Part shown: one piece after another, positions 46,436 through 64,000 of the stretch | How the letters are laid out: each line of letters opens with the position of its first letter | Position numbering within the stretch: position 1 is the first letter of the stretch | Assembly (NCBI GenBank): GCA_963752475.1 | Contig: CAVVYR010000008.1 | Location: 160,001-224,000 of the forward strand | Direction of reading: 5' to 3' | From: an uncultured Chloroflexia bacterium | Lineage (GTDB): Bacteria; Chloroflexota; Limnocylindria; Limnocylindrales; CSP1-4 | DNA length: 64,000 nt | The notes under the pieces: model-generated | Database searches by the model: none | Told to the model about the DNA's origin: nothing | Seen by the model: the letters and a program-made list of their open reading frames with translations, nothing else | Translations under genes and position numbers: made by a program

Positions 46436-47029
46436 TCACGCAGGCTCCCCCTCTTCGGCCCCGCCCCTGGACAGCTCCAGGGACTCCGCCAGCGCCAGCC
46501 AGCCGTCGTCGGCTGGCTCGTCAGCCACGCACTGCAGCTGATAGTGATCGTCACCACTCGCCAGCAGGTAGACCGTGGTGTAGGCCGCGCTGGGCTCGTT
46601 GTGGATGTCGAAGCGATAGGCCTCGCCCGCGGGTAGCTCGACCTCCGTCACCTCGATCGGCCGCTCCACGTCGCTGTGGCTGGGCGTCATCAGTGCTTCG
46701 TAGCGCTCGGCATGTGCATCCAGAGCGAGTGGGTAGCTGGGATACCAGGTCAGGTCGCACCAGCTGCCGCTGCCGTCGCTGGCGTAGATGACCTTCCAGA
46801 ACGGGACCGGCTCTTCGGCAAAGCCCTCGTCGTAGAGGCCCCAGTCCTCCTTCTGGCGCATCTCGATGTCGGCGGACCAAGCCGCCGGCACGGAGAGCGC
46901 CACGCCAGCCTCGGGGACGGGGATCCGCTGGGTTTCACCTCCCTCGGTCGCGTCGTCCTGCGCGACCACCACAGCAACCTGACCGACGAGCAAGCCGGTC
47001 AACAGCAAAGACATGCAGCCACGTCGCAT
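46436..47029 (-). CDS. Secreted protein with one two-cysteine module (paralog of 21733-22699)
   Basis: Signal peptide ending VAQ; AGVALSVP..W, ELPAG.A.R.DI and LQC..D....WL.LAESLE. Confidence 0.8.
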   Translation of the reverse strand: MRRGCMSLLLTGLLVGQVAVVVAQDDATEGGETQRIPVPEAGVALSVPAAWSADIEMRQKEDWGLYDEGFAEEPVPFWKVIYASDGSGSWCDLTWYPSYPLALDAHAERYEALMTPSHSDVERPIEVTEVELPAGEAYRFDIHNEPSAAYTTVYLLASGDDHYQLQCVADEPADDGWLALAESLELSRGGAEEGEPA

Positions 47030-47091
47030 CGCTCTTCCCCCCTATACGTTTCGGCCCATCGTCGACCCCCGACAGAGGGCCGTCAATACCG

Positions 47092-47130
47092 AAGAAGCGC
47101 CGGGGCCCTCGATGGACCCCGGCGCTTCTT
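47092..47130 (-). terminator. Intrinsic terminator of the VIT-vWA gene
   Basis: 14-bp stem AAGAAGCGCCGGGG / CCCCGGCGCTTCTT. Confidence 0.75.
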
Positions 47131-47150
47131 GTGTGCTGCTGGTTCGGGGA

Positions 47151-49300: not shown

Positions 49301-49331
49301 GGTCGTACCTCTTTGCGGTGGGTACGGCTAT

Positions 49332-49357
49332 GACGTTGGCAGCGTCGCTGCGGTTCC
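49332..49357 (-). promoter_or_regulatory. ECF sigma-type promoter upstream of the VIT-vWA gene
   Basis: GGAAC - 17 bp - CGTC on the minus strand, about 30 bp before the ATG. Confidence 0.55.
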
Positions 49358-49358
49358 T

Positions 49359-50201
49359 TCAGCTGGTGCGCGGAGGCCCCAGGCGGATGAAATCACGTAG
49401 CTCGGCCACGCTCATGCGGCCGGGGTAGATGTGCTCGTGCCACCAGGTCACACCGGCCTCGACGTACGGAGCCAGGAGCCTGGAGTCAGCCTCGGGCTCG
49501 CCGCTGAGCAGCCCGGCATGGACGAGGTCGAACGGACCGTCGTCCTGGCGCTCGGCCTCTACGAAGGCCCTCACCTCCGACATCTCCGCGGCTGTCATCT
49601 GGTACTCGAAGCCGGCTCCGGCCTTGATGGGAAAGACGCCGTCCCAGGCGGCCGCACGACGCATGGGACGTCTGTTGGGCCAGGTACCGGCGACCCAGAT
49701 CGGGACCGCGGCCGCTGCAGCGGGCGTGGCAGGAACGGCTCCGTGACGGCATGGATGTACTCGCCCTCGAAGTCGACGGGCTCACCCGACCAGAGTCGGT
49801 CGAGCAAGGCCAGGCTCTCGTCGAGGATGCGGGCACGGATCCGCGGATCGGCCTCATCGCCGAAGGCCGCGAACTCGCGCTCGTCGTTGGCGCCCAGCCC
49901 GACGCCCAGGATGAGTCGGCCACCGGAGAGGTGGTCCAGGGCCACGGTCTCGCGAGCCAGCTTGGTCATCCGGCGGCGCGCCAGGGGCGTGACCATCGGA
50001 CCCAGGATGAGGCGCTCGGTACGGACGGCCGCGGCCGACAGGGCGATCCAGGATCGGTCACCTCGGGCTCGTGTCGGTCGCGAGGTGATCCCACAGGAAG
50101 AAGCCGTCCCAGCCTGCACCCTCCGCGGCCACAGCGACGTCCGCCAGCAGATCGGGGTCGGCATACTCCCCGAAGATCGACAGGTCCAGGCCGAAGCGCA
50201 T
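49359..50201 (-). CDS. LLM-class flavin-dependent oxidoreductase (frameshifts near 50050-50065 and 49712)
   Basis: MRFGLD..GWDGFFLWDH, LGPMVTPLARRR..KLARETV.LD.LSGGRLILGVGLG, PIWVAG.WP and RAAAWDG, across frames. Confidence 0.85.
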
Positions 50202-50270
50202 GTTGCATCCTTTGTGTTCAGGTGGATCGTTCGCTCTGCTCGAGTGTGATGCACCGGCGAAGAGCGAAGG

Positions 50271-50648
50271 TCAGGGCGCGTCCTCTCGCAGCTGGACGAA
50301 GACGCCGCGGGATGGCTCCTCGCCGACGACGCGCGTGACGTGGCCGGTGCCGCTCAGGTCCTCGAGCAGCGCGACGTCGCCGGGGCCCATGTGGCGGATC
50401 TGGCCGTCGCCGACCTCGACCTCCAAGCGGCCGCCGAGGTTGAAGTAGAGCTGCCGTCGGGGGCTGGGGTGCCAGTCGCCGAACCAGCCGGCCGGGAACT
50501 CGAAGAGCAGCGCGCGCTCCGCGGGCAACGGCGCCGAGACATCGAACGGTGGCGCGGGTGGCGCGAAGTCGGCGGGCTCGAGAGCGATGTCGATGTCCTC
50601 GAAGTGCGAGGTGCCGCCGTCATCAGCCCAGATGCGGGTGACCCTCAC
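50271..50648 (-). CDS. Cupin domain protein
   Basis: RIWAD..G.SHFED, DWHP.PRRQ, G..EVEV.DG..R...PGD..LLED..G.GH. Start is uncertain. Confidence 0.85.
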   Translation of the reverse strand: MRVTRIWADDGGTSHFEDIDIALEPADFAPPAPPFDVSAPLPAERALLFEFPAGWFGDWHPSPRRQLYFNLGGRLEVEVGDGQIRHMGPGDVALLEDLSGTGHVTRVVGEEPSRGVFVQLREDAP

Positions 50649-50655
50649 GGCAGCG

Positions 50656-51366
50656 TCATCGGCTGAAAGCGGGGTGTCCCGCGTCGAGGACCTCGGCATA
50701 GACCGTGGACGGCGCAGCGTACGAGCCCAGGAGCGCCTCCAGGTCACGGACCGCCCGGTCGATGTCGTCTGGCGCGGCGTCGTGGTGACCCTCGATGGTG
50801 ATGAGGACCTCGACCGTGTCCTCGCGTGCCGCGCTCGCCTTCGATTGGCGCCAGCACCAACGGCGCGCGCTCACGCGCTCGTCGTCGTCGCTGAAGATGA
50901 CCTCGCCCGGCTCCGGGTGGGCCGTCTGGCTCGAGCCGAGGTCGGCCCAGGCCTCCCCGCCATGGGCCAGGCGCACCGTCGTGCCGCCGCTCACGTCGCG
51001 CTGATCGAAGACCGCCACCGGCAAGGCATAGCGGATGCTGACGAGGTTGGCCAGGTCGACAAGGGCGTTGACCGAGGGCAGCTCGCCCTCCTTGGTGAGG
51101 CGCCGCAGCAAGGCCTCGGCAGCCGAGCGGTACTTGGTGGGGTTGACGCCGAAGCCGCGGAACACGCCGCGCCAGGCAGCCAGGGTCGGCAGCTCCGAGA
51201 GCGGTGTCTCACCGATGCGCTCGCGCACGGAGGCCTGCTCGGCGTGGAAGGCCGCGCTGAGCTCGGCAGGTGCGGGGCGGTTCCTTACGCCGTCTGCGTG
51301 GATGACCCCGCCGACGACATTCGGGAACCGCTCGAGGACCTCGTGGTCGTAGCCGAACCGCGCCAT
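50656..51366 (-). CDS. B3/B4 domain protein (PheRS beta-like, possible tRNA trans-editing factor)
   Basis: AWR..FR.FG..P.KYRS..EALLRR, INALVD..N.VS-like segment, GEVIF.DD and RRWCWRQ. Confidence 0.88.
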   Translation of the reverse strand: MARFGYDHEVLERFPNVVGGVIHADGVRNRPAPAELSAAFHAEQASVRERIGETPLSELPTLAAWRGVFRGFGVNPTKYRSAAEALLRRLTKEGELPSVNALVDLANLVSIRYALPVAVFDQRDVSGGTTVRLAHGGEAWADLGSSQTAHPEPGEVIFSDDDERVSARRWCWRQSKASAAREDTVEVLITIEGHHDAAPDDIDRAVRDLEALLGSYAAPSTVYAEVLDAGHPAFSR

Positions 51367-51383
51367 GCCCAGAGTCTAATGGG

Positions 51384-52720
51384 CTAGCTCGACGCCTCGC
51401 GACCCGCCACGATGTCGGTCGGGGCCTTGCCCTGCAGCGCATGAGCGGCCATCACGGCGGCGCCGAAGGCCGTCGTCTCAGGTTCGGTCACGCGAGCCAT
51501 CGGCCGCTCGTAGGCGGTGCTGCGCAACTCACGCCAGAAGGGAACGCGCGTGGGATGTCCGGCTGCGAGCACCAGCTCGTAGGGCCGCCCGGAGGCAGCT
51601 TCGAGCTTCGCGATGATGGCGGCCGAGCGCTGCGCCAACCCCTCGAGCACAGCGCGCATGACGGCCGCGCGGTCGGCGTCGTAGGGCACGGCATCGAGGC
51701 GACCAGACGCAGGTCGTCGGTGACTTCGAAGTCGATGCCACTGCTGTCCGCTCTGGCCACGGCTTCGTACATGGCCTCGTCCTCTACGCCATCGAAGAGC
51801 AGTGCCCGCCACTGCTGGAAGAAATGGCCGGAGTGGATGTTGATGTGGGCGTACCAGGTGTCGTCGTCGACATAGCAGCCCTGATCGATGCCTCTGGCAG
51901 CCTCGCCCTCGAGGGGCGCCTTCAGCAACGACAGGTGCGCCTCCGAGGTGCCCGCCGAGAGATAGAGCTCTCGCGTCGAGCGCACGCCGGCGCCGTAGGC
52001 ACCGCAGAGGTGATCGTGACCACCGCTCACGAGGGCCGTTCCCGATGGCAGGCCGAGCTGCCGCGCCAGCACGGGATCGAACTCACCGATGACGGTCCGT
52101 CCCGGGACGAGGCGTGGCCACTCCAGCTCGATGGCCGTGGCTTCGATGGTGGCCTGATTCCAGGTCCGCTCGACGATGTCGAAGGCACCGGCACGAGAGG
52201 CGTGCGACCAATCCATCACCAGGTCGGCGCCCAGGCCGTGCAGCACGTAGTCGCCCAGGTCGGTCCAGGTCACGGCACGTTCCAGCGTCTCCGGCCGCTG
52301 GTCGCGGATCCAGAGCAGCTTGAAGAGCGAGAACGTGGCGTCAGGCGGCCAGCGGCGCGTGAGCGGCAGCTCACCTCCCGGCCCACGCATGTAGGTGGCG
52401 GCCTCCGCTAGGCCACGAGGGTCGTACCAGGTGATGACGTCGTCGGTGGGCCGACCCTCGGCATCGAGCAGCACGACCTCCTCGCCGACGCTGGCGACGC
52501 AGAGCGCATCGACCGAAGCTCCGGCCGGCAACCGGCGGACGGTGGAGCCCATCAGTTCCAGCACGGTCTGGAGCACCTGCGCTGGACGATGGGCCTCGCC
52601 GGCTTCGTCGCGCAGCACCGGGGTGGGGGCGGACTCGACCGCCAGCGTTCGGCCGGTCCCGATCTCGAGCGCCAGGACCTTCGTGTGCGTGGTGCCCACG
52701 TCGATCCCCAGGGTGATCAT
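51384..52720 (-). CDS. FGGY-family carbohydrate kinase (frameshift near 51703)
   Basis: GIDVGTT.TK, ASVGE, I.WYDPR, GGHDH and SAGTSE; the C-terminal RAVLEG...E.TAFGAA lies in another frame. Confidence 0.85.
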
Positions 52721-53667
52721 CGGTCGGATACCTGCTCGACGCGGACGCGAGCCCGCCAGGCCTCAAGCTCGAAGTCGGGTGGCAGCTCGGGGGGCAGATG
52801 CGTGGCACCGGACGTGCCGCAGGCGACACCGAGCGCGATCGCGTCACGCGGGGCGAGCCCTTCCTCGATGCCCACGACCAGGCCGGCCAGGAAGAGATCC
52901 CCGGAGCCGGTCGGGTTGACCTCCTCGATCTGGGGCGCGACGGCATGCACGACGCCGTCGCCATCAGCCAGCAACGCACCCTCCGCGCCCATGGTCACGA
53001 CCACGACCTCGATCCCGTGCTCACGGATGCGCTGCATCTCGGCGCCCAGCTCGACGATACCCATCGGTGCGTCGGGATCGGCGGCACCCAACAGCTCCAG
53101 CAGCTCGCGGCGGTTGCACTTGAGCATCCATGGCCGGCTGGCGAAGGCCACGCGCAGGGCCTCGCTATGGATGTCGACGACCGTGCGCGATCCGGCTGTG
53201 CGGCCGATCTCGAGGATCTCGGCCACGACGCTGGCGGGCACGCTGTCGGGCAGGCTGCCAGAGATGACGAGCAGGTCGTCCTCGGCAGCGTCGGCCAGGA
53301 TGTCATCGAGGAGGCGGCCGATCTCGGCTTCTGTCACGGCCGGGCCGGGCTCGTTGAGCACGGTCGTCCGTTCGGCATCGGGCTCGACGATGACGAAGCA
53401 GACGCGGGTGCCGGCAGCGATGGTCGTATGGCGATCCTCGACCCCATCGGCGGCGATGAAACCGCGCAGCGACTCACCCACGTCGCCACCGAGGAACCCA
53501 TAGGCCGCGGCCGACGCTCCCAGGCGCAAGGCGGCCCGGGCCACGTTGAAGCCCTTGCCGCCGGGGACCACCGAGACCTGCACCGCCCGGTTGACCGCGC
53601 CCAGTCGGAGCGGCGGCCAGGTCGAGATGCGGTCCATGGCCGGGTTGGCGCCGACGACGCGAATCAT
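52717..53667 (-). CDS. PfkB family hexose-phosphate kinase (1-phosphofructokinase/tagatose-6-P kinase type)
   Basis: NPAMD, GGKGFNVAR, NEPGP, SGSLP, K.NRREL and NPTGSGD. Confidence 0.9.
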   Translation of the reverse strand: MIRVVGANPAMDRISTWPPLRLGAVNRAVQVSVVPGGKGFNVARAALRLGASAAAYGFLGGDVGESLRGFIAADGVEDRHTTIAAGTRVCFVIVEPDAERTTVLNEPGPAVTEAEIGRLLDDILADAAEDDLLVISGSLPDSVPASVVAEILEIGRTAGSRTVVDIHSEALRVAFASRPWMLKCNRRELLELLGAADPDAPMGIVELGAEMQRIREHGIEVVVVTMGAEGALLADGDGVVHAVAPQIEEVNPTGSGDLFLAGLVVGIEEGLAPRDAIALGVACGTSGATHLPPELPPDFELEAWRARVRVEQVSDR

Positions 53668-54095
53668 GGTCCGGGCTCCCAGTCGGGCTCGGCCAGCTCG
53701 AAGCCGGTGAAGTCGAAGCCCGGCGAAACGGTGCAGCCCACGAGCGTCCAGGCCCCGAGGGGCTCGGCCGTCTGCCAGTCTCCCGCGGGCACGACGAGCT
53801 GTGGTCGATGATCGGCACCCAGATCAGGCCCGAGGATGTGGCGCTCAGCAGGTGCATCGCCGGACCCCGACGCGATCGAGAGCGCAAGGGGGTCACCCGC
53901 GTAGTAGTGCCAGACCTCGGCCGCATCGACACGGTGCCAGTGGGAACGCTCACCGGCGCGCAGGAGGTAGTAGATGGCCGTGCCCGCTGGCCGCTCCCCT
54001 GCCCCTGCTTCGGCTCGCCAAGTCTCAGCGTAGTGCCCGCCCTCGGGGTGTGGTCGGAGCCCCAGCTCGGTGATGATCTCGTGGGGGTCTCGCAT
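53664..54095 (-). CDS. Cupin_5 (DUF985) family protein
   Basis: L.PHPEGG.Y.ET, TAIYYLL, SHWHRV...E.WH.Y.G and LVGCTVSPGFDF..FE. Confidence 0.92.
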   Translation of the reverse strand: MRDPHEIITELGLRPHPEGGHYAETWRAEAGAGERPAGTAIYYLLRAGERSHWHRVDAAEVWHYYAGDPLALSIASGSGDAPAERHILGPDLGADHRPQLVVPAGDWQTAEPLGAWTLVGCTVSPGFDFTGFELAEPDWEPGP

Positions 54096-54147
54096 GGACC
54101 AAGCCTAGCCCGATGGGCTGGACACGGCGTGTAGTGTGAGTCGGCCC

Positions 54148-55455
54148 ATGACGAGTCCCCCCGCCAACGGACACACCGCCGGCCAGATCCAGCGTGTCTA
54201 CCTGCTGCTCACGCTGCTGACCACGCTGGCCGCCTCGTTCATCTGGGGCGTCAACACGCTCTTCCTGCTCGATGCCGGGCTCAGCAACACCGAGGCCTTC
54301 GCAGCCAACGCCTTCTTCAGCGTCGGCATGGTCATCTTCGAGGTCCCGACCGGCGTCATCGCCGACACCCGCGGCCGGCGCCTCTCGTTCATGCTCGGTG
54401 CCGGCACGCTGCTGCTCTCGACGCTGCTGTACCTCGTGATGTGGCAGGTCTCGGCGCCGTTCGTGGGCTGGGCGCTGGCCTCGATCCTGCTCGGCCTCGG
54501 CTTCACCTTCTTCAGCGGCGCGACGGAGGCCTGGCTGGTAGACGCGCTCGGCGCGACGGGCTTCAAGGGCAACCTCGAGACGGTCTTCGGCCGTGGCCAG
54601 ACGATCGCCGGTGTGGCCATGCTGAGCGGCTCGGTGCTCGGTGGCGTGGTGGCCCAGATGAGCAACCTCGGCGTGCCCTACGTGTTGCGCGCGATCTTGC
54701 TCGGCGTAGCGCTGCTGGCCGCGTTCTGGTTCATGCGCGACCTGGGCTTCAAGCCCAAGACCGACGTGAGCACGCGGGAAGCGCTGGGCGACATCACGCG
54801 CGGCTCCATCGACGGCGGGCTGCGCAATCGGCCCGTGCGCTGGATGATGCTGGCCGCGCCGTTCACCGGCGGCATCGGCATCTATGCGTTCTACGCCATG
54901 CAGCCCTACCTGCTCGAGCTCTACGGCGACCCTAACGCCTACTCCATCGCTGGCCTGGCTGCGGCCATCGTGGCCGGTGCCCAGATCGTGGGCGGCCTGT
55001 CGGTACCCATCGCGCGGCGCTTCTTCAACTTGCGCACGAACGCCATCTTCCTGGCGGTGGCGCTGGAGTCGATCATCCTCGTGGCCATCGCCGTCGTCGG
55101 CTTCAACATGGACGACATGGGCATGACCGCCTTCTACCTGGCCATCGCGCTGCTCGTGGCCTGGGCCCTGGTAGCCGCCATCGCGGGACCGATCCGCCAA
55201 GCCTTCCTCAACGGCGTCATCCCCTCCGAGCAGCGCGCGACGGTGCTCTCGTTCGACTCCCTGATGAGCTCGCTCGGCGGCGTCGTGGCGCAGCCTGCTC
55301 TGGGACGCGTGGCCGACATGTCCGGCTACGCGGCGTCGTACATGGTCTCCGGTGCGGTCAGCGCGCTGGCGCTGCCGTTCATCTTCATGGCCAAGCGCGA
55401 GGGGGCTCCGTCCGACCCCATCGACGTCCTGGAACCCACCTCCTCGGAGGGCTGA
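54148..55455 (+). CDS. MFS transporter
   Basis: FEVPTG.IAD..GRR, FFSGA.EAW..D and IPS..RATVLS; about 12 TM. Start is 54136 or 54148. Confidence 0.9.
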   Translation: MTSPPANGHTAGQIQRVYLLLTLLTTLAASFIWGVNTLFLLDAGLSNTEAFAANAFFSVGMVIFEVPTGVIADTRGRRLSFMLGAGTLLLSTLLYLVMWQVSAPFVGWALASILLGLGFTFFSGATEAWLVDALGATGFKGNLETVFGRGQTIAGVAMLSGSVLGGVVAQMSNLGVPYVLRAILLGVALLAAFWFMRDLGFKPKTDVSTREALGDITRGSIDGGLRNRPVRWMMLAAPFTGGIGIYAFYAMQPYLLELYGDPNAYSIAGLAAAIVAGAQIVGGLSVPIARRFFNLRTNAIFLAVALESIILVAIAVVGFNMDDMGMTAFYLAIALLVAWALVAAIAGPIRQAFLNGVIPSEQRATVLSFDSLMSSLGGVVAQPALGRVADMSGYAASYMVSGAVSALALPFIFMAKREGAPSDPIDVLEPTSSEG

Positions 55456-55467
55456 GCCCGCGGCCGG

Positions 55468-55833
55468 TCAGGGCGTGTTGGGATGCTTCTCGGCCGCTTC
55501 ACGAACGTAGGCGGTGACAAGCTCGGCGTCCACATCCTGGGCTCTCTGGTAGTCCGCCTGAGCGGCGGTGCTGGTGCCGACACGCAGGATTCCGGCGGGG
55601 TCATCCAGCTCCGTGCCGTAGAGGAAGCGCAGGTTGACCGTCGCCTTGGAGACACCGATAGCCACGACCCACTCGTGCCATCGCTGTGCGAACGTGTAGA
55701 CGAGCATCTTGTAGGTGAGCTTGCAGTCGAGGTCGATACCGGCAGCATCGATGGCGGCGGCGAGGGCACGGACGGTCCCGCGTGCATCCTCACGTACGGT
55801 CGGCAGATAGGCTTCGAGCAGGGTTTCAGCCAT
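55468..55833 (-). CDS. DUF1801-like small protein
   Basis: V.L.FL.G.EL.DP.G.L..G pattern; overlaps the stop of the PNP-like gene. Confidence 0.7.
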   Translation of the reverse strand: MAETLLEAYLPTVREDARGTVRALAAAIDAAGIDLDCKLTYKMLVYTFAQRWHEWVVAIGVSKATVNLRFLYGTELDDPAGILRVGTSTAAQADYQRAQDVDAELVTAYVREAAEKHPNTP

Positions 55834-56650
55834 CGGCCAGCACCGGGATGGCGGCACGCAGGATGGTGCGGTAGTCAGCGTGCGCTCGGTGGGTCATGTC
55901 CAGCACGGGACCAAGATCGATGGGCGGCCCGATACCGGCCGACATCGTCGAGACGAACGTGAAGGCCACGACCCTCATGCCCGCGTGGTAGCCGGCCATG
56001 ACCTCCGGCAGGAACGAGTTCGAGGAGATGGAGCAGCCGGCCATCTGCGCCAGGCGGATCTCGGCCGGTGTCTCGAAGCTGGGGCCGGTCCAGTAGCCGG
56101 CGACGCCGGTAGGAAGGCGCACGCCGGCAGCCTCGACCGCGGCGACCACACGGCTCGTTAGCCTTGCTTCGTAGAGTTCGGCCATCGAGACGTAGGGCGT
56201 GTCCCATCCCTGGCCGTAGCGCTCGACCGACAGCGGGTTGAAGCCACTGAAGTTGATGTGGTCGGTGAAGGCCAGGAACGAGCCCGGGGTCACGTCCTCC
56301 CGCATCGAGCCGGAGTTGGCCGAGTAGAGCAGCGTGCGACAGCCGGCACGGGCCAGCGCGCGCGCGGGCAGGCCGCTCTCCTGCCAGGTGGCGTCGTCGC
56401 AGGGCAGGACCTTGGCCTTGACAGCGGCGACGGTCACACCGTCCAGCTCGCCGACATCGACCTCGTTGACGTGGTCGGGGATTGCGCTGGGGCGGAAGCC
56501 CAGATCCGCGAAGGGGATCGTCACGCGACCCTCGAGGATGTCGGTGCAGGGGGCGAAGCCGGTGCCGCAGATGACGCCGACCGCCGGTGCACGTCCAGCA
56601 CGCTCGCAGATGGTGGCGGCTGCCTCGTCGGCAGCGGCTCGAGTGTCCAT
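55826..56650 (-). CDS. Purine nucleoside phosphorylase (trimeric PNP family) homolog with a divergent active site
   Basis: ICGTG, DHIN...NPL, GPSFETPAE and PE...H.GMRV are conserved; the GRxHxYE, GMS and TN motifs are substituted. Confidence 0.85.
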   Translation of the reverse strand: MDTRAAADEAAATICERAGRAPAVGVICGTGFAPCTDILEGRVTIPFADLGFRPSAIPDHVNEVDVGELDGVTVAAVKAKVLPCDDATWQESGLPARALARAGCRTLLYSANSGSMREDVTPGSFLAFTDHINFSGFNPLSVERYGQGWDTPYVSMAELYEARLTSRVVAAVEAAGVRLPTGVAGYWTGPSFETPAEIRLAQMAGCSISSNSFLPEVMAGYHAGMRVVAFTFVSTMSAGIGPPIDLGPVLDMTHRAHADYRTILRAAIPVLADG

Positions 56651-56749
56651 GGCTTCAGCATAGGGCCCGCGAGGCCCACCCGATCACCTTGCCGCTGCAC
56701 CTGCCGCGAACGTAGACTCGGAGTGGCTACGCGTGTACGGAGGTTCGTC

Positions 56750-58378
56750 GTGAAAAGGTTGCTCTCTTCCCTGCTGCTCAGCATCGTGCTGGCGGCCGCC
56801 ATACTCCCATCGGTCGTCGTGTCGGCGGAGGGCGTCGAGCCACAGCACGGCGGACGCCTGGAGCTCGTGGCTGCCAACGACCTCATCACGCTCGACAACA
56901 GCCAGGTGCTGGATCTCGACTACAACATGGTCGCGGGCGCGCTGTACGAGGGCTTGTATCACTTCAACCCCGAGGGTGAGCTCGAAGCCGCCTTGGCCGA
57001 CGGGATGCCGGAGGTCTCCGAGGATGGCCTCGTATACACCTTCAAGCTCAAGCCCGGTGCGATGTTCGCTGGCCCGGACTTCGAACCGCGCGAGGTGACC
57101 GCAGCCGATGTGGCCTACGGCATGGAGCGCGCACTGAGCCCTGCCCCAGTGGGGGCGCCCGCCCCGTCGTGGGGTAGTGGCTACCTCTTCCCCATCAAGG
57201 GCGCGGCGGCGTTCAACGCCGGCGAGGCCGACTCGGTCGAGGGCCTCAAGGTCATCGACGATCGAACCCTCGAGGTCACGCTCGAGGCGCCCACGACCAC
57301 GTTCCTGCTGGGCCTGACCATCGCCACCAGCTGGCCTGTGCCGCGGGAGGCGGTGGCAGAGCGCGGCGAGGACTTCGGCAACAGCCCTGTCGGCGCCGGG
57401 CCCTTCTACGTGGCCGAGTGGAACAAGGGCTCGGACATCACCATCGTGCGCAACCCCGGCTACGTCGATCCGGAGCTGCCGTACCTCGATGAGATCTTCG
57501 TCGACCTGGGCGTGGACGAAAACACACAGAAGCTGCGTCTCGAGACGGGCGAGACCGACGGCGTCTTCGACCAGTTCGCGCTCTCGCCACAGTCGCTGCG
57601 TGAGCTCGAGGATGCACCCGGCGTGACGCTCGTCGACTCCGTCGGCCCGCGCATCTTCTACCTCGCGCTCAACAACGACGGCATCTTCGCGGACAAGGAT
57701 CTGCGGCAGGCCGTGGCCCACGCCATGACCACCGACTTCACCGTCCGCTTCGGTGGCCTGGCCAAGCCCTGGAACCAGCTCATCAGCTCCACCTCGGTGC
57801 AGTCCGATCCGGAGGGGACCGTTACCTATGCTCACGATCCGGAGGCTGCGGCGGCGCTGCTGGAGTCGGTGGGCTACGACGGCAGCCCGGTCAAGGTGGT
57901 CTACGACGTCACCGATCCGTACACCACGCAGAACGCCACGGCCCTGACCCAGGACCTGGAGGCTGTCGGGTTCACGGTCGAGCTCATCGGCTTGCAGAAG
58001 GGCGAGTTCTACAACGCCATCTACGACCCCGCAGCCTTCGACATCTCGTCGACGTACTGGAGCGCGGACTATCCCGACGCGCAAGACTTCATCTCGACGA
58101 ACTTCATCTGCGACACGATCGACGTGCTCAACATCTCGCGCTTCTGCGACGAGGCCATCGACGAGGCCTTCTTCGCCACCGAATCGATGGAGTTCGGCCC
58201 TGAGCGTGATGCGGCACTCCTCGACGTCCAGCAGCGGCTCATCGACGAGCTGGCCGGCATCCCGGTGATGGAGGTCACGCCCAAGTCCGTCTTCACCGAG
58301 CGCGTCGGAGACATCCCCACCATCGCCACTTACGCGCCCTTCTTCTGGGCCGAGGCCTGGGTGAAGGCAGACGCCTGA
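56750..58378 (+). CDS. Class 5 (peptide/nickel-type) ABC substrate-binding protein
   Basis: Signal peptide; LYEGL, S.DG.VYTFKL, G.GPF..EW.KG, LRQAV and W.ADYPD. Confidence 0.9.
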   Translation: MKRLLSSLLLSIVLAAAILPSVVVSAEGVEPQHGGRLELVAANDLITLDNSQVLDLDYNMVAGALYEGLYHFNPEGELEAALADGMPEVSEDGLVYTFKLKPGAMFAGPDFEPREVTAADVAYGMERALSPAPVGAPAPSWGSGYLFPIKGAAAFNAGEADSVEGLKVIDDRTLEVTLEAPTTTFLLGLTIATSWPVPREAVAERGEDFGNSPVGAGPFYVAEWNKGSDITIVRNPGYVDPELPYLDEIFVDLGVDENTQKLRLETGETDGVFDQFALSPQSLRELEDAPGVTLVDSVGPRIFYLALNNDGIFADKDLRQAVAHAMTTDFTVRFGGLAKPWNQLISSTSVQSDPEGTVTYAHDPEAAAALLESVGYDGSPVKVVYDVTDPYTTQNATALTQDLEAVGFTVELIGLQKGEFYNAIYDPAAFDISSTYWSADYPDAQDFISTNFICDTIDVLNISRFCDEAIDEAFFATESMEFGPERDAALLDVQQRLIDELAGIPVMEVTPKSVFTERVGDIPTIATYAPFFWAEAWVKADA

Positions 58379-58391
58379 TCCTCAAGGGTCC

Positions 58392-59372
58392 GTGACCACG
58401 GCCCTACCGATGACAGCGCCTCTGCTGGCCGTCGAGGGCCTGTGGGTCACGTCGGCGGCCGGCGACATCCTGCGGGGGGTCGACCTGTCCGTGCCCCGAG
58501 GCAGCGTGGTGGGCGTGGTGGGCGAGTCCGGCTGCGGCAAGTCCACGCTCGGTCTGGCGGTGCTCGGGCTGCTGGGGCGTACGCGGGAGATCAGTGGCGG
58601 CGAGATCCGGCTCGATGGCGAGCGCATCGGCGCGCCCGGTTTCGATGGCACGGCCGGGCTGAGGGGTACGCGCGTCAGCTTCGTGCCCCAAGATCCGTTC
58701 CGCTCCTTCGACCCGCTGCGCCGTGTCGGTCCGCAGGTCCGGCGCCCGCTGGAGCTGCATCGCGGTCTGTCCGCCGGCGAAGCCGACCTTCGAGTCACAG
58801 ATCTGCTGTCCCGCCTGGGCGTGGCGGAGCCCGAAGGCGTCATGGGCCGCTACCCGCACGAGCTCTCGGGCGGGCTGCTGCAGCGAGCGACCATCGCCAC
58901 CGCCCTCTCTTGTGAGCCGGAGCTGGTCATCGCCGACGAGCCCACGACCGCGCTGGACGCCCTGGTGCAGGTCCAGGTCATCGATTCGTTCCTGCCGCTG
59001 GTGCGAGAGCTCGGTACGAGCGTCGTGGTCATCACCCACGACCTGCGGCTTCTGGAGCGCATGGCCGACCACATCGCGGCGATGTACGCCGGCCGGATGG
59101 TGGAGTTCGGACCGGCCGCACGGTTGCTGCGTGAGCCCCGGCACCCATATCCGGCTGCGCTCTTGGAGTCGTCCGTTCGGGCCGCCCGGCCCGGAGAGCG
59201 ACTGCAGGTCATCGAGGGTCAGCCGCCGACGCTGCCAGGGACGTTCTCCGCCTGCGCCTTCGCGCCCCGGTGTCCGGCGGCGCAGCAGCGCTGTCTCGAC
59301 GAGGAGCCGCGCTACGACTGGCCGGCCGACGAGGGCGTCGCCTGCCACTTCCCGTTGGAGCGCGGCTCGTGA
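58392..59372 (+). CDS. Dpp/Opp ABC ATP-binding protein (DppD-like)
   Basis: GESGCGKS, YPHELSGG, ADEPTTALD, HPY and a C-terminal C.F.PRC...C...ACH. Confidence 0.92.
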   Translation: MTTALPMTAPLLAVEGLWVTSAAGDILRGVDLSVPRGSVVGVVGESGCGKSTLGLAVLGLLGRTREISGGEIRLDGERIGAPGFDGTAGLRGTRVSFVPQDPFRSFDPLRRVGPQVRRPLELHRGLSAGEADLRVTDLLSRLGVAEPEGVMGRYPHELSGGLLQRATIATALSCEPELVIADEPTTALDALVQVQVIDSFLPLVRELGTSVVVITHDLRLLERMADHIAAMYAGRMVEFGPAARLLREPRHPYPAALLESSVRAARPGERLQVIEGQPPTLPGTFSACAFAPRCPAAQQRCLDEEPRYDWPADEGVACHFPLERGS

Positions 59373-60235
59373 TCGGCCCGACGCCGATCCCGGCGCCCGC
59401 TGCGACACCCGCGGGCGAGCCCCGGCCGTGGGGCCTGTGGATCGGCGCGGGGATGCTGTTCGTGCTTGTGGCGCTGGTGGTCCTCTACCCGCTGCTCTCG
59501 CCGGTCGACCCGACGTACGAGTCGCTCGATGGTCTGACCGAATTCGGCGAACCCCTGCCCGTCGCCGCCGACGGCTATCCACTCGGTACCGACCCACGAG
59601 GACGGGACATGCTCGCGCGCACGATCCACGCCGGCGGCCTGACGATGCTGACCGCGCTCTCGGCCGTGGCCATCGCCACCCTCGCGGGTGTGGCCGTGGG
59701 ACTCCTGGCCGCCAACACGAAGCGCTTCGCGGGATCGGTCCTGATGCGCTTCACCGACCTCGGCCTGGCCATCCCCGGGCTGCTGCTCGCGGCATCGTTC
59801 TCGACCATCCTCGGCCGCGGCACGCTCTCGCTGATCGTCGGCCTCGCGGCCGTCTTCTGGGCACCCATCGCTCGTGTCACGTACGGGCAGGCGGTCGTGC
59901 TTCGGGAGCGGAACTACGTGGAGGCGGCACGTGTCATGGGCGGCGGGGCCAGCACGGTGCTGCTACGTCACATCCTGCCTCACCTGTTGCCCGTGGTCGG
60001 CGCCTATGCCGCGCTCTCGGTGGGCTGGGCGGTGCTCTTCGAGTCGGCGCTGGGGTTCCTCGGCGCGGGCGTGCAGGAGCCAGAGGCGTCGATCGGCTCG
60101 ATGCTTGAGGCGCATCGCAGCTACTACCGCAGCCACCCGGCGCTGATCATCATCCCCGCGGTCTTCCTGGCCGTGCTGGTGATGGCCGCCAACCTCGTGG
60201 GTGAGGCGTTGCGCACGCGGACCGAGGAACGCTGA
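59369..60235 (+). CDS. Dpp/Opp ABC permease (DppC-like)
   Basis: PLGTD..GRDM.AR, YVEAAR..G....RHILP and E..L.FLG.G; GTGA-coupled start. Confidence 0.9.
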   Translation: MIGPTPIPAPAATPAGEPRPWGLWIGAGMLFVLVALVVLYPLLSPVDPTYESLDGLTEFGEPLPVAADGYPLGTDPRGRDMLARTIHAGGLTMLTALSAVAIATLAGVAVGLLAANTKRFAGSVLMRFTDLGLAIPGLLLAASFSTILGRGTLSLIVGLAAVFWAPIARVTYGQAVVLRERNYVEAARVMGGGASTVLLRHILPHLLPVVGAYAALSVGWAVLFESALGFLGAGVQEPEASIGSMLEAHRSYYRSHPALIIIPAVFLAVLVMAANLVGEALRTRTEER

Positions 60236-61155
60236 TGGGCTGGTATATCGCGCGACGGCTGGCTGCGGCGCTGATCACGGTCTGGATCGTGGCCACAGCC
60301 GGATTCCTGCTCGTGGAACTCATCCCCGGCGACCCCGCCCGGCAGCTCGCCGGCCCTGGAGCGTCCGCCGAGACTCTGGCCAGCATCCGCGAGGCCTACG
60401 GATTCGACGATCCGCTGCCGGTGCGATACGTCGAGGCGATGGCGCGCATGGCGCAGGGCGACCTCGGCTACAGCTTCGCCAAGGCGGAGCCGGTGACCGA
60501 TGCGCTCCTGCGTTCGCTGCCGACGACGCTACTGCTGACCGGTCTGGCCTTCCTGGTGGAGGTGCTCATCGCCATCCCGCTCGCCCTCTGGGTCGTCAGC
60601 CGTGGCGGGTTCGTCGACCGCCTGCTGGTGATCCTGGCCGGCTTCACCGCGGCCATCCCGGCCTTCCTGGTGGGCCTGCTGCTGATCTACGTCTTCGCCT
60701 TCCGGCTGCGCATCTTCCCCCTCGGCGGCGGTGGCTCACCGGCGGCGTACATCCTGCCGGTGCTTACGCTGGGCATCCCCTTCGGGCTGGTGCTGGCGCG
60801 CTTGCTGCGCACGTCGCTCCTGGAGCAGCGCAGCCAGCCCTACGTCGCCTTCAGCGAGGCCATGGGTGAGTCGGCCTGGTCGGTGCGCTGGCGGCATTTG
60901 CTGCCCAACGCGTTGCTGCCGCTGCTGTCGATCCTGGCGCTGGACCTCGCGGGACTCTTCTCGAGCGTGGCCGTCGTCGAGGTGGCCTTCTCCATGCCGG
61001 GACTCGGGGCCGACCTGCTGCTCGGACTCAGGCGCCTCGATACGGCGCTCATCGTGGGCATCGGCATCATCGCCGGCCTGCTCGTGGCGTTCGTGAACCT
61101 GCTTGCGGACCTGGCCGTCATCGCCATCGACCCACGGGTACGACGGAGCACCTAG
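60235..61155 (+). CDS. Dpp/Opp ABC permease (DppB-like)
   Basis: YI.RRL, PGDPA, GDLG.S, H.L.NALLP, VE..F..PGLG and IDPRVR. Confidence 0.9.
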   Translation: MGWYIARRLAAALITVWIVATAGFLLVELIPGDPARQLAGPGASAETLASIREAYGFDDPLPVRYVEAMARMAQGDLGYSFAKAEPVTDALLRSLPTTLLLTGLAFLVEVLIAIPLALWVVSRGGFVDRLLVILAGFTAAIPAFLVGLLLIYVFAFRLRIFPLGGGGSPAAYILPVLTLGIPFGLVLARLLRTSLLEQRSQPYVAFSEAMGESAWSVRWRHLLPNALLPLLSILALDLAGLFSSVAVVEVAFSMPGLGADLLLGLRRLDTALIVGIGIIAGLLVAFVNLLADLAVIAIDPRVRRST

Positions 61156-61241
61156 CCGACCGGGCGACCAGGGCATCTCTGGTCGGCTGGGGCAGTCGGC
61201 CGCGCAGCGTCGCTTCTTTCGGCGCCCGGGGCGGCCCGGCC

Positions 61242-61410
61242 GGATCGTGTCGCCCCCATCGACGCCAGCAGCCGCTCGTGGCCGGTCGTCGCCCGTGGGG
61301 GCCGGCTGGATCGTGTCGTCCCCATCGACGCCAGCAGCCGCTCGTGGCCGGTCGTCGCCCCCATCGACGCCAGCACCCGCTCGTGGCCGGTCGTCGCCCC
61401 CATCGACGCT
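61242..61410. repeat. 39-bp tandem repeat, about 3.5 copies with one interruption
   Basis: Unit CCATCGACGCCAGCAGCCGCTCGTGGCCGGTCGTCGCCC starts at 61256, 61322, 61361 and, partially, 61400. Confidence 0.9.
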
Positions 61411-61443
61411 ATCGGCCCATCCGGCCGGTTCCGGTGGTCAACC

Positions 61444-61605
61444 GTCGTGGGAGTCGACCGTAGTCGCACACCACGACCAGCTCACGTCTCCGAGCCACTC
61501 GCATCCGGCGTCGCCTATGCCCTGCCACGCTCAGCGCTGGTAGCCGGTCGTCCCGCGGACCCCGGATCGGTGGCTACGAGGGTGACTACGGTCGACTCCG
61601 ACGAC
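61444..61605. mobile_element. MITE-like / long imperfect palindrome with 24-bp terminal inverted repeats
   Basis: GTCGTGGGAGTCGACCGTAGTCGC (61444-61467) matches the reverse complement of 61582-61605 (GTCGTCGGAGTCGACCGTAGTCAC) at 22/24 positions; there is also an inner imperfect inverted repeat. Confidence 0.5.
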
Positions 61606-61647
61606 ATCTGTCCACAGCGGCACCGCGGGTAGGGTTCGCGAGGGAGG

Positions 61648-61813
61648 GCCTGGGCCGGTGCGCCCGGGCAGGTGCGTGTCACTGGGCGCCTGGGCAGGTG
61701 CGTTTCACTGGGCGCCTGGGCAGGTGCGTTTCACTGGGCGCCTGGGCCGGTGCGTTTCACTGGGCGCCCGGGCAGGTGCGCCTGGGCCGGTGCGTTTCAC
61801 TGGGCGCCTGGGC
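61648..61813. repeat. 26-bp tandem repeat, about 5 full copies plus 14-bp partials, overlapping the stop of the inverted ATPase gene
   Basis: GGTGCGTTTCACTGGGCGCCTGGGCA at 61671, 61697, 61723, 61749 and 61789. Confidence 0.92.
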
Positions 61814-62615
61814 GGCGCTCGACCTGTTCAACCGCGGGCTCCTTGCCCGTCGCGGCAAGCAACGCCTTCGTGTACTCGTGCTGCGGTCGCTCGAAGATCT
61901 GGTCACGCGTGCCATGTTCGACGATGCGCCCCTCGCGCATGACCGAGACACGCTGGCTGATGTGGCGCACAACGGCGAGGTCGTGAGCGATGAAGAGGTA
62001 GGCGATCCCGCGCTCGGCCTGCAAGTCCATGAGCAGGTTCAGGATCTGGCCCTGGACGGAGACATCGAGCGCAGAGACGGGCTCGTCACAGATGATCAGG
62101 TCCGGCTCCAGCGCCAAGGCGCGCGCGATGCCGACGCGCTGCAGCTGGCCACCGGAGAACGAGCTCGGGCGCCGATCGCCCAGCGAGGGGTCGATGCCCA
62201 CTCGCCCCAACAGCTCATCGGCACGTCGTCGTCGCTCGTGGCTGTCGTAGAGCCGGTGGATGACCCACGGCTCGGCCACGATGTCGCGCACCCGGAAACG
62301 CGGATCGACCGAGGAGTACGGGTCCTGGTAGATGAGCTGCATGTGCTTGCGCATCTCACGGAGCTCGGCACCGTCGAGAGCGAACAGGTCCTGGCCACGG
62401 AAGGTGGCCGTCCCGGCGTCGGGCTCGACGAGGCGCAGCAGGATGCGGCCGGTGGTCGACTTGCCGGATCCCGACTCACCCACGAGCCCATGGGTCTGTC
62501 CGGGCTCGATGGCCAGCGAGACGTCCTGGACCGCCCGGACCTCACGCCGGCCCGAGCCACGGCCGCTCCGGAACGTCTTGGAGAGGCCGCGGGCGTCGAG
62601 GAGCGGTTCGGGCAT
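61797..62615 (-). CDS. Dpp/Opp ABC ATP-binding protein (DppF-like), convergent with the operon
   Basis: VRAV.DVS, GLVGESGSGKST, QDPYSS, FSGGQ.QR.GIARAL, CDEPVSALDVSVQ and P.H.YT.ALL; start MPEPLL behind a -10 box. Confidence 0.92.
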   Translation of the reverse strand: MPEPLLDARGLSKTFRSGRGSGRREVRAVQDVSLAIEPGQTHGLVGESGSGKSTTGRILLRLVEPDAGTATFRGQDLFALDGAELREMRKHMQLIYQDPYSSVDPRFRVRDIVAEPWVIHRLYDSHERRRRADELLGRVGIDPSLGDRRPSSFSGGQLQRVGIARALALEPDLIICDEPVSALDVSVQGQILNLLMDLQAERGIAYLFIAHDLAVVRHISQRVSVMREGRIVEHGTRDQIFERPQHEYTKALLAATGKEPAVEQVERRPGAQ

Positions 62616-62668
62616 AGCCCGACTGTAGCGTTGCGATCGGCGCTGGACGGCGGTGCGACACTGCGGCG

Positions 62669-63046
62669 ATGAACGAGAACCCTGCCGCCACGACCGCCAC
62701 CCGCTACTCGTGGGACGCGATCGAACCGGATCATCCCATCGAAAGGGCCACCCGCCGACTCGTGAAGGGGGAGCGAGCGATGGTCGCACGCTTCGTCCTC
62801 GATGCGGGCCTCGACGTGCAGCCCCACGTCCATCACAACGAGCAGATCACGATGATCCTCGAAGGGCGGCTGCTGGTTCGCATCGGCACCATCGGCTCGG
62901 ACGAGATCCGCGAGGAAGTGCTGGGCTCGGGCGAGGTCATCGTGTTCCCGGCGTTCGTGCCGCATGGGTTCCAGGCCCTCGAGCGCGTGGTCGCCTTCGA
63001 CGTGTTCAGCCCGCCCAGCGCCAAGACCGGCATCGACCAGAGCTAG
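62669..63046 (+). CDS. Cupin domain protein
   Basis: H.H.NEQIT.ILEG, P..VPH and D.FSPP. Confidence 0.88.
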   Translation: MNENPAATTATRYSWDAIEPDHPIERATRRLVKGERAMVARFVLDAGLDVQPHVHHNEQITMILEGRLLVRIGTIGSDEIREEVLGSGEVIVFPAFVPHGFQALERVVAFDVFSPPSAKTGIDQS

Positions 63047-63342
63047 GCGGCCGATACCCACCCCTCTCCCTCCATCGGGCGCTTCTATCGCACACGCGCG
63101 GGGTTTATGAATACGTGTGCACTAGGCCCGGTCCACACGGGCCGGTCGGCCCTGTCTGGCCACCTGCACCGAGGAAGACGCTGAGCGCAACCGAATAGCT
63201 CGAGCCACCGGAGGCTTTCCCCCTGGCTGACCGACGACCCGAGTCGTGGGCCATGTCTGACACATAGCCGTCCGAAAACTACGCCCGCGGTAACCGTGGT
63301 GACGCGCGGTCCGCGGGTGTTTGAGCACGAAGAGGCGTAGTG

Positions 63343-63984
63343 ATGCCAAAGGCTGCTGTTCCGCCACCGCCAGCTCCCGTTGGGGGCAAGCGAGCGGCCA
63401 CGTTCCAAGAGGAAGTCATCGCCATGATCCCGGCTGACTCCCGCCTGGAGACGTGTATCCAATGTGGGACCTGTGGAGGGTCATGCCCCTCGTATGCGGA
63501 CATGGACCACACGCCACGGCAGATCTTTGCGCTTGTCCGCGCCGGGGCCAAGGACAAGGTCATGGACAGCAACACGCCCTGGATGTGCGTGAGCTGCTAC
63601 CTCTGCGCGGTCCGCTGTCCGCAGCAGATCCACATCCCCGACGTGATGTACGCGCTCAAGGCCAAGTCCACCCAGGACGGCCGGGTCCCGAGCCACGTGG
63701 CGCCCGACTTCAGCAAGACCTTCGTCGACTACATCCACCAGTACGGCCGCAGCTTCGAGGTCGGCCTCGTAGCCAAGCACTACCTGCGCCACTACATGAC
63801 GCGCCTGCCGGGCATGACCACCTCCGGTATCGGCATGGTGACCAAGGGCCGCATGGGCTTCCGTCCCCACAAGATCAGGGACATCGACGGGCTCAACGCG
63901 ATCCTCGATCGCGCCACCGAGATCGAGCAGGCCAAGCAGCGCGCCGTCTTCGAAGAGCGGCCGCAGAGCGGGGGAGCGCACTGA
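63343..63984 (+). CDS. hdrC: Heterodisulfide reductase subunit C-like 2x[4Fe-4S] protein
   Basis: CIQCGTCGGSCP..MD.TPR and PWMCVSCYLCAVRCPQ.I. Confidence 0.85.
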   Translation: MPKAAVPPPPAPVGGKRAATFQEEVIAMIPADSRLETCIQCGTCGGSCPSYADMDHTPRQIFALVRAGAKDKVMDSNTPWMCVSCYLCAVRCPQQIHIPDVMYALKAKSTQDGRVPSHVAPDFSKTFVDYIHQYGRSFEVGLVAKHYLRHYMTRLPGMTTSGIGMVTKGRMGFRPHKIRDIDGLNAILDRATEIEQAKQRAVFEERPQSGGAH

Positions 63985-64000
63985 TGGCCACGCAGTACAT
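63984..64000 (+). CDS. Start of the next coupled gene (probably HdrB-like), truncated by the window edge
   Basis: TGATG overlap with hdrC; only MATQY is visible, so the identity is inferred from gene order. Confidence 0.35.

Follow-up and report, generated by a model that had tools for sequence, protein, structure and literature searches.

Introduction

Few enzymes have been studied as thoroughly as the trimeric purine nucleoside phosphorylases (PNPs), whose active-site residues are regarded as diagnostic. In the canonical enzymes, Tyr88 and His257 read the ribose hydroxyls and Asn243 activates 6-oxopurines. Among the ATP-binding cassette (ABC) importers, those of nucleosides use binding proteins of the Bmp/PnrA type, which form a family other than the class-5 proteins; such importers would in general terms do the same job as the system described below if its ligand is a nucleoside. 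Class-5 systems have been reported as studied for the uptake of blasticidin S, kasugamycin and peptidyl nucleosides (PMC4927156, PMC12728205). In the present study, we analysed a stretch of 64,000 nucleotides from an uncultured Chloroflexia bacterium of the Limnocylindrales (contig CAVVYR010000008.1, positions 160,001 to 224,000; the whole stretch is called the window), in which the gene of a PNP-like enzyme, named PNPL here, stands head to head with the genes of a class-5 importer.

An earlier note made from the letters of this DNA had proposed that the locus imports and processes an unusual nucleoside. We give about even chances to a related explanation based on the sequences, in which the module would import an amino-group-bearing ribosyl compound and cleave its glycosidic bond by a PNP-derived enzyme of new specificity.

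Results

The residues of PNPL were compared with those of the solved bacterial PNPs 4UC0, 8SWU and 3ODG in HMMER alignments, and the family-wide comparison was made in a MAFFT alignment of 148 PNPL family members and 119 canonical PNPs. Human PNP chains were also among the matches of PNPL (E ~1e-19), and equivalent positions are given in human PNP numbers (S33, H64, R84, H86, Y88, A116, F200, E201, M219, S220, N243 and H257), which we take to be those of the PNP literature. The PNP fold claimed in the earlier note was borne out by the PF01048 match (Table 1), by an AlphaFold2 model with a predicted local distance difference test score of 96.6 and a predicted template modelling (TM) score of 0.94, and by Foldseek TM scores of 0.88-0.92 to trimeric PNPs and XapA (8SWU, 3ODG, 4M1E, 1G2O and human PNP).

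On this scaffold, the residues that read the substrate are replaced throughout the family. At the positions of Arg84 and His86, all members have K80 and L82, whereas canonical PNPs have Arg in 96% and His in 94%. The ribose contacts are fixed as C84, N211 and L246, at positions where Tyr (93%), Met (94%) and His (75%) are found in canonical PNPs, and the equivalent of Asn243 is T235 in 99% of the family and Asn in 94% of canonical PNPs. F192, E193, S212 and H60 are present in 100% of the family. Fixation at 98-100% of the 148 members was found for T30, H60, N62, K80, L82, C84, D85, W149, A184 and W187, and also for F192, E193, SSNSF (209-213), S234, T235 and L246; it was lower for S110 (97%), N112 (95%) and Y153 (95%). 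The 119 canonical PNPs have at the same positions S/T, H, G, R, H, Y, E and TNAAGG, and at the remaining ones F, Y, F/Y-E, VGMST, TN and H. Further family-fixed changes are N62 for Gly, A184 for Tyr, W187 and Y153 for Phe, together with a two-residue insertion just after the invariant Trp149. In PNP, both the Phe at the Y153 position and the loop that holds this insertion reach into the site of the neighbouring subunit. Every substitution listed in the earlier note was reproduced by these alignments, and the residues which it had given as kept (E201, F200, H64 and S220) are kept in the family alignment as well.

It is very improbable in our view that PNPL is a normal inosine, guanosine or xanthosine phosphorylase which diverged in looks only. 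Its best NCBIfam and structure matches are PNP and XapA, and some source annotations name its relatives purine nucleoside or xanthosine phosphorylase. However, it scores under every curated cut-off, with 163 against 218 for PRK08202, 140.1 against 197.1 for TIGR01697, 142 against 303 for TIGR01698, 103 against 371 for XapA and 47.9 against 274.85 for the MTAP model TIGR01694. It also lacks the Arg, His, Tyr and Asn that canonical PNPs keep at 93-96%, and the same genome encodes a canonical PNP with all standard motifs (contig C6, 612783-613700). Most genomes of the genus also have a match at ~30% identity. Judged by its sequence, PNPL lies outside the curated PNP families, whose defining features were tested and found absent from it.

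The homolog search which the earlier note had called for was made in two ways. A word-indexed search with 8000 scored candidates gave at least 350 proteins at E <=1e-10, and the best 120 of 350 matches were all 79-93% identical. In an exhaustive search of 50%-identity representatives, P0121 was the sole full-length relative above ~40% identity (63%, 361 bits), and it carries the same residue replacements as PNPL; some fragments followed, and then canonical PNPs at no more than 138 bits and 38% identity. A metagenome scan with P0121 as query found only members 60-67% identical to P0121, mostly closer to the PNPL of the window, and no more distant clade with gene context except the metagenome contig L078; ESM Atlas gave generic PNP clusters only and no structure model. 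The substitutions are thus common to all relatives, with 97-100% fixation in the 148 members at all positions but N112 and Y153. The ratio of nonsynonymous to synonymous divergence (dN/dS, NG86) of PNPL was 0.12-0.24 in 10 pairs, the same as or below that of the transporter genes, and the synonymous divergence (dS) between phyla was ~0.85-1.35, near saturation for distant pairs. Because the substitutions are family-fixed, the dN/dS is low and a canonical PNP exists in the same genome, decay private to this genome does not account for PNPL. These data point to a selected paralogue with a different pocket, neither a housekeeping PNP nor a pseudogene. As a separate observation, six proteins of 814-889 aa (P0136, P0141, P0195, P0201, P0268 and P0269) match a PNP query in two to three separate stretches, and they look like canonical-type PNPs fused as tandem repeats.

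Since the His, the Thr (for Ser), the Ser and the Lys (for Arg) of the anion site remain, PNPL could still bind an anion, which might be phosphate or an acidic substrate group. The polar side chains gained by the family (N62, N112, S113, S209, S210 and N211) would line the position of the purine and ribose wall of PNP. A quite unlikely alternative is that PNPL is a non-catalytic binder which senses, sequesters or chaperones an imported compound. Replacement of all the equivalents of Arg84, His86, Tyr88, Met219, Asn243 and His257 speaks for such a pseudoenzyme, and the position of Asn243 tolerates both Thr and Val, the latter in a sub-lineage of two loci (L023 and L073) that also has His at N112. 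On the other hand, Thr30, His60, Lys80, Ser212 and the Phe192-Glu193 pair are invariant, the new polar residues are fixed at 95-100% as expected of a working pocket, PNPL has no DNA-binding or signalling domain in Pfam, and the sugar-kinase neighbours described below suggest that a sugar product is released. PNPL most likely works like a glycosyl-cleaving enzyme of the NP-I superfamily.

The linkage with the importer was examined in 54 distinct PNPL loci, 36 of which have at least 600 nt upstream of PNPL. An orthologue of the substrate-binding protein (SBP) lies on the opposite strand in 35 of these 36, including loci of a second phylum with different flanks, and so the co-occurrence with class-5 ABC genes held. 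The gap between the aligned parts of PNPL and SBP is 86-281 nt in 32 of the 35 and 0.7-1.5 kb in three; in L016 and L023, intervening genes account for this width. By eye, transposase-like open reading frames (ORFs) stand between a disrupted SBP gene and PNPL in L016 (8300-9550), which suggests an insertion sequence (IS) in the module, and a small secreted protein with a MazF/PemK-like toxin-antitoxin pair stands between SBP and PNPL in L023 (8150-9420). The sole exception is L073, with no SBP within its 668 nt upstream of PNPL; by eye (1-2050), it has a small secreted protein upstream, as in L023, and a BrnT-like ORF downstream of PNPL. Since the upstream gene is the small secreted protein of L023, L073 is probably a contig-end effect with the SBP beyond the end, and it was rejected as an orphan copy of PNPL.

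In the genus of the window, PNPL faces SBP in all 14 loci, and the ATPase D, permease C, permease B and reversed ATPase F set follows SBP in the 13 loci reaching that far; L025 ends within permease B and L026 within the SBP gene. The block was also found in eight loci from metagenome-assembled genomes (MAGs) labelled Actinomycetota or Acidimicrobiia, and wherever the flanks allow, these loci included, the set is complete. Identity to the window in the eight loci is 72-76% for PNPL and 50-66% for the ATPases and permeases; for SBP, seven loci have 71-73%, and L055, in which a frameshift seems to be present, has 54-61%. PNPL and SBP are the two best-conserved genes of the block between phyla, with 72-73% against 54-66% for the others. 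None of the Limnocylindrales flanking genes was found in the eight loci, and the SBPs there begin, like lipoproteins of Gram-positive bacteria, with a lipobox and a linker rich in Thr and Glu, so that they look adapted to their host, which argues against mis-binning. The most divergent copy, on L078, has the same arrangement (PNPL 67%, SBP 68%).

Searches of 400 further Chloroflexota genomes, 23 of them from other genera of the same family, and of 300 further genomes from the class to which the Actinomycetota-labelled genome G437 belongs gave no member of the PNPL family. Among 24 genomes of the genus, 14 have orthologues of both PNPL and SBP, and the remaining 10 (59-92% complete) gave neither; five of these module-free genomes (G012 and G017-G020, 80-92% complete) gave no match to the neighbouring transporter gene of the major facilitator superfamily (MFS) either. 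The carriers are a few soil and sediment bacteria. By its sequence relationships, the block appears to be an accessory unit that moved between phyla and was kept together despite saturated synonymous divergence.

The closest solved chain to the SBP of the window is 8UPI (E 7e-47). This is MeAmi_SBP, which according to the preprint on it was annotated as a peptide binder and binds L-amino-acid amides; it is stated there that Asp413 makes a salt bridge with the ligand amine, that Trp410 is conserved among peptide and glutathione binders, and that Tyr32 and Trp34 read the carboxamide (bioRxiv 10.1101/2024.02.22.581678). In the HMMER alignment, where the chain numbering is that of the paper, the Trp and Asp of YWSADYPD in the window SBP align to Trp410 and Asp413, and Leu is present at both equivalents of Tyr32 and Trp34. 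The same Trp and Asp align with GWTGD of E. coli K-12 DppA in 22 of 22 family SBPs. In the mature numbering of DppA, Asp408 presumably anchors the amino group of the ligand and Arg355 its carboxylate; the equivalent of Arg355 is Ile in 14 and Val in 8 of the 22. Because the Trp/Asp anchor is kept, the ligand very probably carries a free alpha-amino-like group, and because Arg355 is replaced, it is very probably bound in another way than the carboxylate of a dipeptide. By this alignment, a plain nucleoside lacking an amine is an unlikely ligand, and the anchor would fit an amino-acid- or peptide-conjugated compound.

These results bear on a simpler explanation, in which the transporter is an ordinary di- or oligopeptide importer and PNPL a neighbour travelling with it by chance, at work in an unrelated cytoplasmic pathway such as the salvage of endogenous modified nucleosides. 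The peptide-type anchor of all 22 SBPs would be expected in that case, the best NCBIfam matches of the SBP are Opp4A, GsiB and DppA-type models, PNPL and SBP are divergent and not co-transcribed, and the block occurs in few independent lineages. Nevertheless, all of these matches are far under their cut-offs (for example 107 against 650, and 77.5 against 1005 for the DppA model), and the Arg355 position is replaced in every SBP. Moreover, the adjacency has outlasted the divergence between phyla and a complete turnover of the flanks, the pairing persists despite IS-like or toxin-antitoxin insertions between the two genes, and these two are the genes best conserved. We therefore hold the chance association to be rather unlikely.

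Sugar or sugar-phosphate kinases, not orthologous to each other, were found near the block in three lineages. The ribokinase-like PfkB gene of L045 begins 22 nt beyond PNPL and on its strand (TIGR02152, 273 against a cut-off of 300). In L078, a ribokinase-like gene (233 bits), 40% identical to that of L045, adjoins the distal ATPase, and within 4 kb there are also genes for a ribonucleotide reductase, an NT5C nucleotidase and an HD phosphohydrolase. The kinases near the block in the genus of the window are of the 1-phosphofructokinase/hexose-kinase subfamily (254 bits against a cut-off of 216) and of the FGGY type. Such neighbours would loosely fit the release of a sugar or phosphosugar. A ribosyl substrate is hinted at by the PNP fold with the equivalents of E201 and F200 kept and by the ribokinase-like neighbours in two lineages.

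The genes of the module, ~7 kb in size within a region of ~70% G+C, were mapped from an ORF listing, Pfam scans and an inspection of the junctions letter by letter, and are listed with the residues of PNPL in Table 1. The gene anatomy and coordinates given in the earlier note agreed with this map, including an intact PNPL frame, a region of about 100 bp shared with the divergent binding protein and a cupin gene divergent from the distal ATPase. All parts of a class-5 importer are present, that is, an SBP_bac_5 protein, two BPD_transp_1 permeases and two ABC ATPases with an oligo_HPY tail, although the tail of the second is a partial match of 24.3 bits, under the 27.1 cut-off. The SBP gene has a GTG start 6 nt beyond GGAGG, and the GTG start of the DppC-type permease overlaps the stop of the preceding ATPase (GTGA).

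Table 1. Genes and intergenic features of the locus in window coordinates, followed by active-site residues of PNPL in its own numbering
Feature	Position	Strand	Remarks
MFS transporter gene	54136-55455	+	
DUF1801 gene	55468-55833	-	PF08818, E 1.6e-10; variable accessory, not core
PNPL, PNP-fold enzyme	55826-56650	-	274 aa, uninterrupted; PF01048, 75.7 bits, E 4.6e-21
Divergent control region	56651-56749		99-bp spacer between PNPL and SBP genes
SBP_bac_5 substrate-binding protein	56750-58378	+	542 aa, signal peptide; PF00496, E 6.7e-67
ABC ATPase, DppD/OppD type	58392-59372	+	ABC_tran and oligo_HPY (56.5 bits)
DppC-type permease	59369-60235	+	BPD_transp_1
DppB-type permease	60235-61155	+	BPD_transp_1_N and BPD_transp_1
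Gap of 640 bp	61156-61796		Tandem repeats throughout; between permease B and convergent ATPase
Second ABC ATPase, DppF/OppF type	61797-62615	-	Convergent to the operon; ABC_tran
Cupin gene	62669-63046	+	53 nt from start of distal ATPase
Thr	30		Equivalent of human S33; GSG to GTG
His	60		Equivalent of human H64, phosphate-loop His; kept
Lys	80		Equivalent of human R84; changed
Leu	82		Equivalent of human H86; changed
Cys	84		Equivalent of human Y88; changed
Motif A-K-V-L-P-C-D			G-R-x-H-x-Y-E replaced
SANSGS	110-115		Canonical TNAAGG; changed
Phe, Glu	192, 193		Equivalents of human F200, E201; kept, with GPSFETPAE motif
Asn	211		Equivalent of human M219; changed; VGMST to SSNSF (209-213)
Ser	212		Equivalent of human S220; kept
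Thr	235		Equivalent of human N243; changed; TN to ST
Leu	246		Equivalent of human H257, His before the last helices; changed

The DUF1801 and cupin genes are variable neighbours and not core parts of the module. The coupling of DUF1801 to PNPL, claimed in the earlier note, holds in the window, where its ATG overlaps the PNPL stop by 8 nt (ATGGCTGA), but the gene is present in only 5 of the 14 same-genus loci; the cupin gene was found in 3 of 14, and neither was found in the Actinomycetota-labelled loci. The 61156-61796 gap consists of tandem repeats (66 bp x 2.1, 39 bp x 2.4 and 26 bp x 4.7). The corresponding gap in relatives is much shorter, from a small overlap up to ~430 nt. Contigs C29 and C7 of this genome (G000) match its part at ~61189-61633 at ~85%, which suggests a dispersed intergenic repeat element.

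Some other features of the surroundings were also observed. In Limnocylindrales loci, a conserved trio stands upstream of the MFS gene (51488-54095, minus strand, in the window), made up of the genes for an FGGY kinase, a hexose kinase of the 1-phosphofructokinase subfamily and a Cupin_5 (DUF985) protein. In Actinomycetota-labelled loci, three same-strand genes precede the distal ATPase (L049, 13-4154), for an NAD-dependent epimerase, a UDP-glucose/GDP-mannose dehydrogenase and a DRL-type oxidoreductase with a SAF domain, and a 1617-aa PKD-repeat protein follows PNPL in L049. Two further contigs of the genome of the window, C23 (28.9 kb) and C24 (33.5 kb), repeat window positions 46470-64000 at 98.2% and 98.7%, with copies of PNPL and SBP included; these are most likely co-binned strain variants and not paralogues, which fits the 5.8% contamination figure of the MAG.

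In the 99-bp spacer, the plus strand has TTGCCG (56689-56694), an 18-nt spacer, TAGACT (56713-56718) and GGAGG (56739-56743), and the minus strand has TATGCT (56662-56657), 6 nt before the PNPL ATG. In the spacer alignment of 21 Limnocylindrales-type loci, TAGACT is invariant, 17 have TTGYC at a distance of 17-19 nt upstream from it, and 20 have a TATGCT-like hexamer on the other strand, 5-8 nt ahead of the ATG of PNPL. The Actinomycetota-type spacers differ from these. TTGYC with TAGACT is a plausible promoter of the binding-protein operon, and because the -10-like hexamer is so near the ATG, a leaderless PNPL mRNA is suggested. The -10 box which the earlier note assigned to PNPL is hence a conserved hexamer, but a consensus promoter scan of 55300-63300 gave no sigma-70 site. 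A terminator scan gave one terminator-like site inside the SBP gene, no more than shuffles give, and an Rfam scan of 54000-64000 with E up to 1 gave a chance miRNA match only and no riboswitch.

Logan contigs of two RNA libraries (X19 and X20) include short contigs of 151-257 nt with 0-14 mismatches on PNPL, DUF1801 and SBP; such libraries may contain DNA, so these matches are no proof of transcription, strand or ends. Depth peaks at 58481-58611 and 58874-59004 were rejected as conserved ATPase motifs from other organisms.

Discussion

In the explanation to which we give about even chances, the class-5 importer, with its binding protein, two permeases and two ATPases, would take in a small ligand with a free amino group, and PNPL in the cytoplasm would cleave a glycosidic bond, most likely N-ribosidic, in this ligand or its immediate product, with phosphate or water as alternative co-substrates. 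PNPL would descend from a trimeric purine nucleoside phosphorylase. The scaffold is retained, as are the Phe-Glu pair, which in PNP binds base and ribose, and some of the anion site (Thr, His, Lys and Ser). Swapped are the residues for reading the ribose hydroxyls, for lining the pocket of the purine and for activating the 6-oxopurine leaving group. Given these swaps, the substrate should differ from inosine and guanosine. What the earlier note proposed for this locus stands in part: the rebuilt PNP-fold enzyme and its linkage with the ABC genes are there, but the SBP keeps a peptide-type amine anchor, which makes a plain nucleoside less likely.

Several points weigh against import and cleavage of a ribosyl compound. 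The carriers amount to only some three or four independent lineages (a single Limnocylindrales genus, L078, and one or two lineages labelled Actinomycetota), and one or two transfers of the block in one piece could account for the linkage. PNPL and the importer form two divergent transcription units and not one operon, and no regulator gene, riboswitch, shared operator or palindrome was found by the Rfam scan and the spacer alignment. The SBP has the anchor by which peptides, glutathione and amino-acid amides are bound, as a plain peptide importer would. Loss of the equivalents of Arg84, His86 and Asn243 is also expected of a non-catalytic binder, and because of the His and Val in L023 and L073, positions N112 and T235 appear not to be essential. 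Finally, the ribokinase-like neighbour occurs in two lineages only, and the PfkB protein near the block in the window belongs to the 1-phosphofructokinase/hexose-kinase subfamily.

A more specific form of the import-and-cleavage explanation may be offered tentatively, and we consider it doubtful as a whole. The module might be a scavenging or detoxifying system for a nucleoside with an amino-acid or peptide handle, exchanged between Chloroflexota and Actinomycetota of soil and sediment. The SBP would grip the amine, and PNPL, as a new specificity class of NP-I enzymes, would remove the base from a ribose that is not plain at its 5' or 3' position, which fits the changes of His257 to Leu and Tyr88 to Cys and the ribokinase-like neighbours. 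Candidates are a peptidyl- or aminoacyl-nucleoside antibiotic and a 5'-substituted nucleoside like S-adenosylhomocysteine.

We found no published description of the PNPL family or of its pairing with an SBP_bac_5 protein in a literature search that covered neither subscription journals nor supplements. The PNPL family comprises several hundred environmental sequences in which the fold and a partial anion site are kept and a different set of ribose and base residues is fixed, and the module is small and common to two phyla. If the pairing is functional, it would represent a new substrate class of NP-I enzymes and another non-peptide cargo for class-5 ABC systems, for which 'peptide transporter' is a routine mis-annotation.

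Compared with trimeric PNPs and XapA (NP-I, PF01048, TIGR01697), PNPL has the full-length fold, the length and the order of secondary structures, and it holds the GPSFETPAE motif, the phosphate-loop His and the Ser of the MST motif. Unlike them, it is only 27-38% identical, falls under all curated cut-offs, has Lys, Leu, Cys, Asn, Ser-Thr and Leu for Arg, His, Tyr, Met, Thr-Asn and His, has SS/NS for VG/AA in the wall of the purine pocket, and carries two inserted residues beside an invariant Trp. The importer has the same subunit set as the Dpp/Opp class-5 (cluster C) systems and keeps the amine-anchoring Trp and Asp. It differs from E. coli dppABCDF in the A-D-C-B order with F on the opposite strand, and from Dpp/Opp importers in the Ile or Val for Arg355, in scores far under the cut-offs of the peptide-SBP models and in the paired PNP-fold gene. 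A Bmp/PnrA-type binding protein was not seen in the module, for which no dedicated comparison was made. The amidase-associated operons of MeAmi_SBP resemble this locus in that an SBP_bac_5 'peptide' importer is tied to one cytoplasmic enzyme, which by the account of the preprint processes a non-peptide, amine-bearing ligand (bioRxiv 10.1101/2024.02.22.581678). The window SBP keeps the equivalents of Asp413 and Trp410 of MeAmi_SBP but has Leu for Tyr32 and Trp34, and in place of the FmdA_AmdA amidase, ANTAR and cytosolic PBP genes of those operons, none of which lies nearby, the importer described here has a PNP-fold partner.

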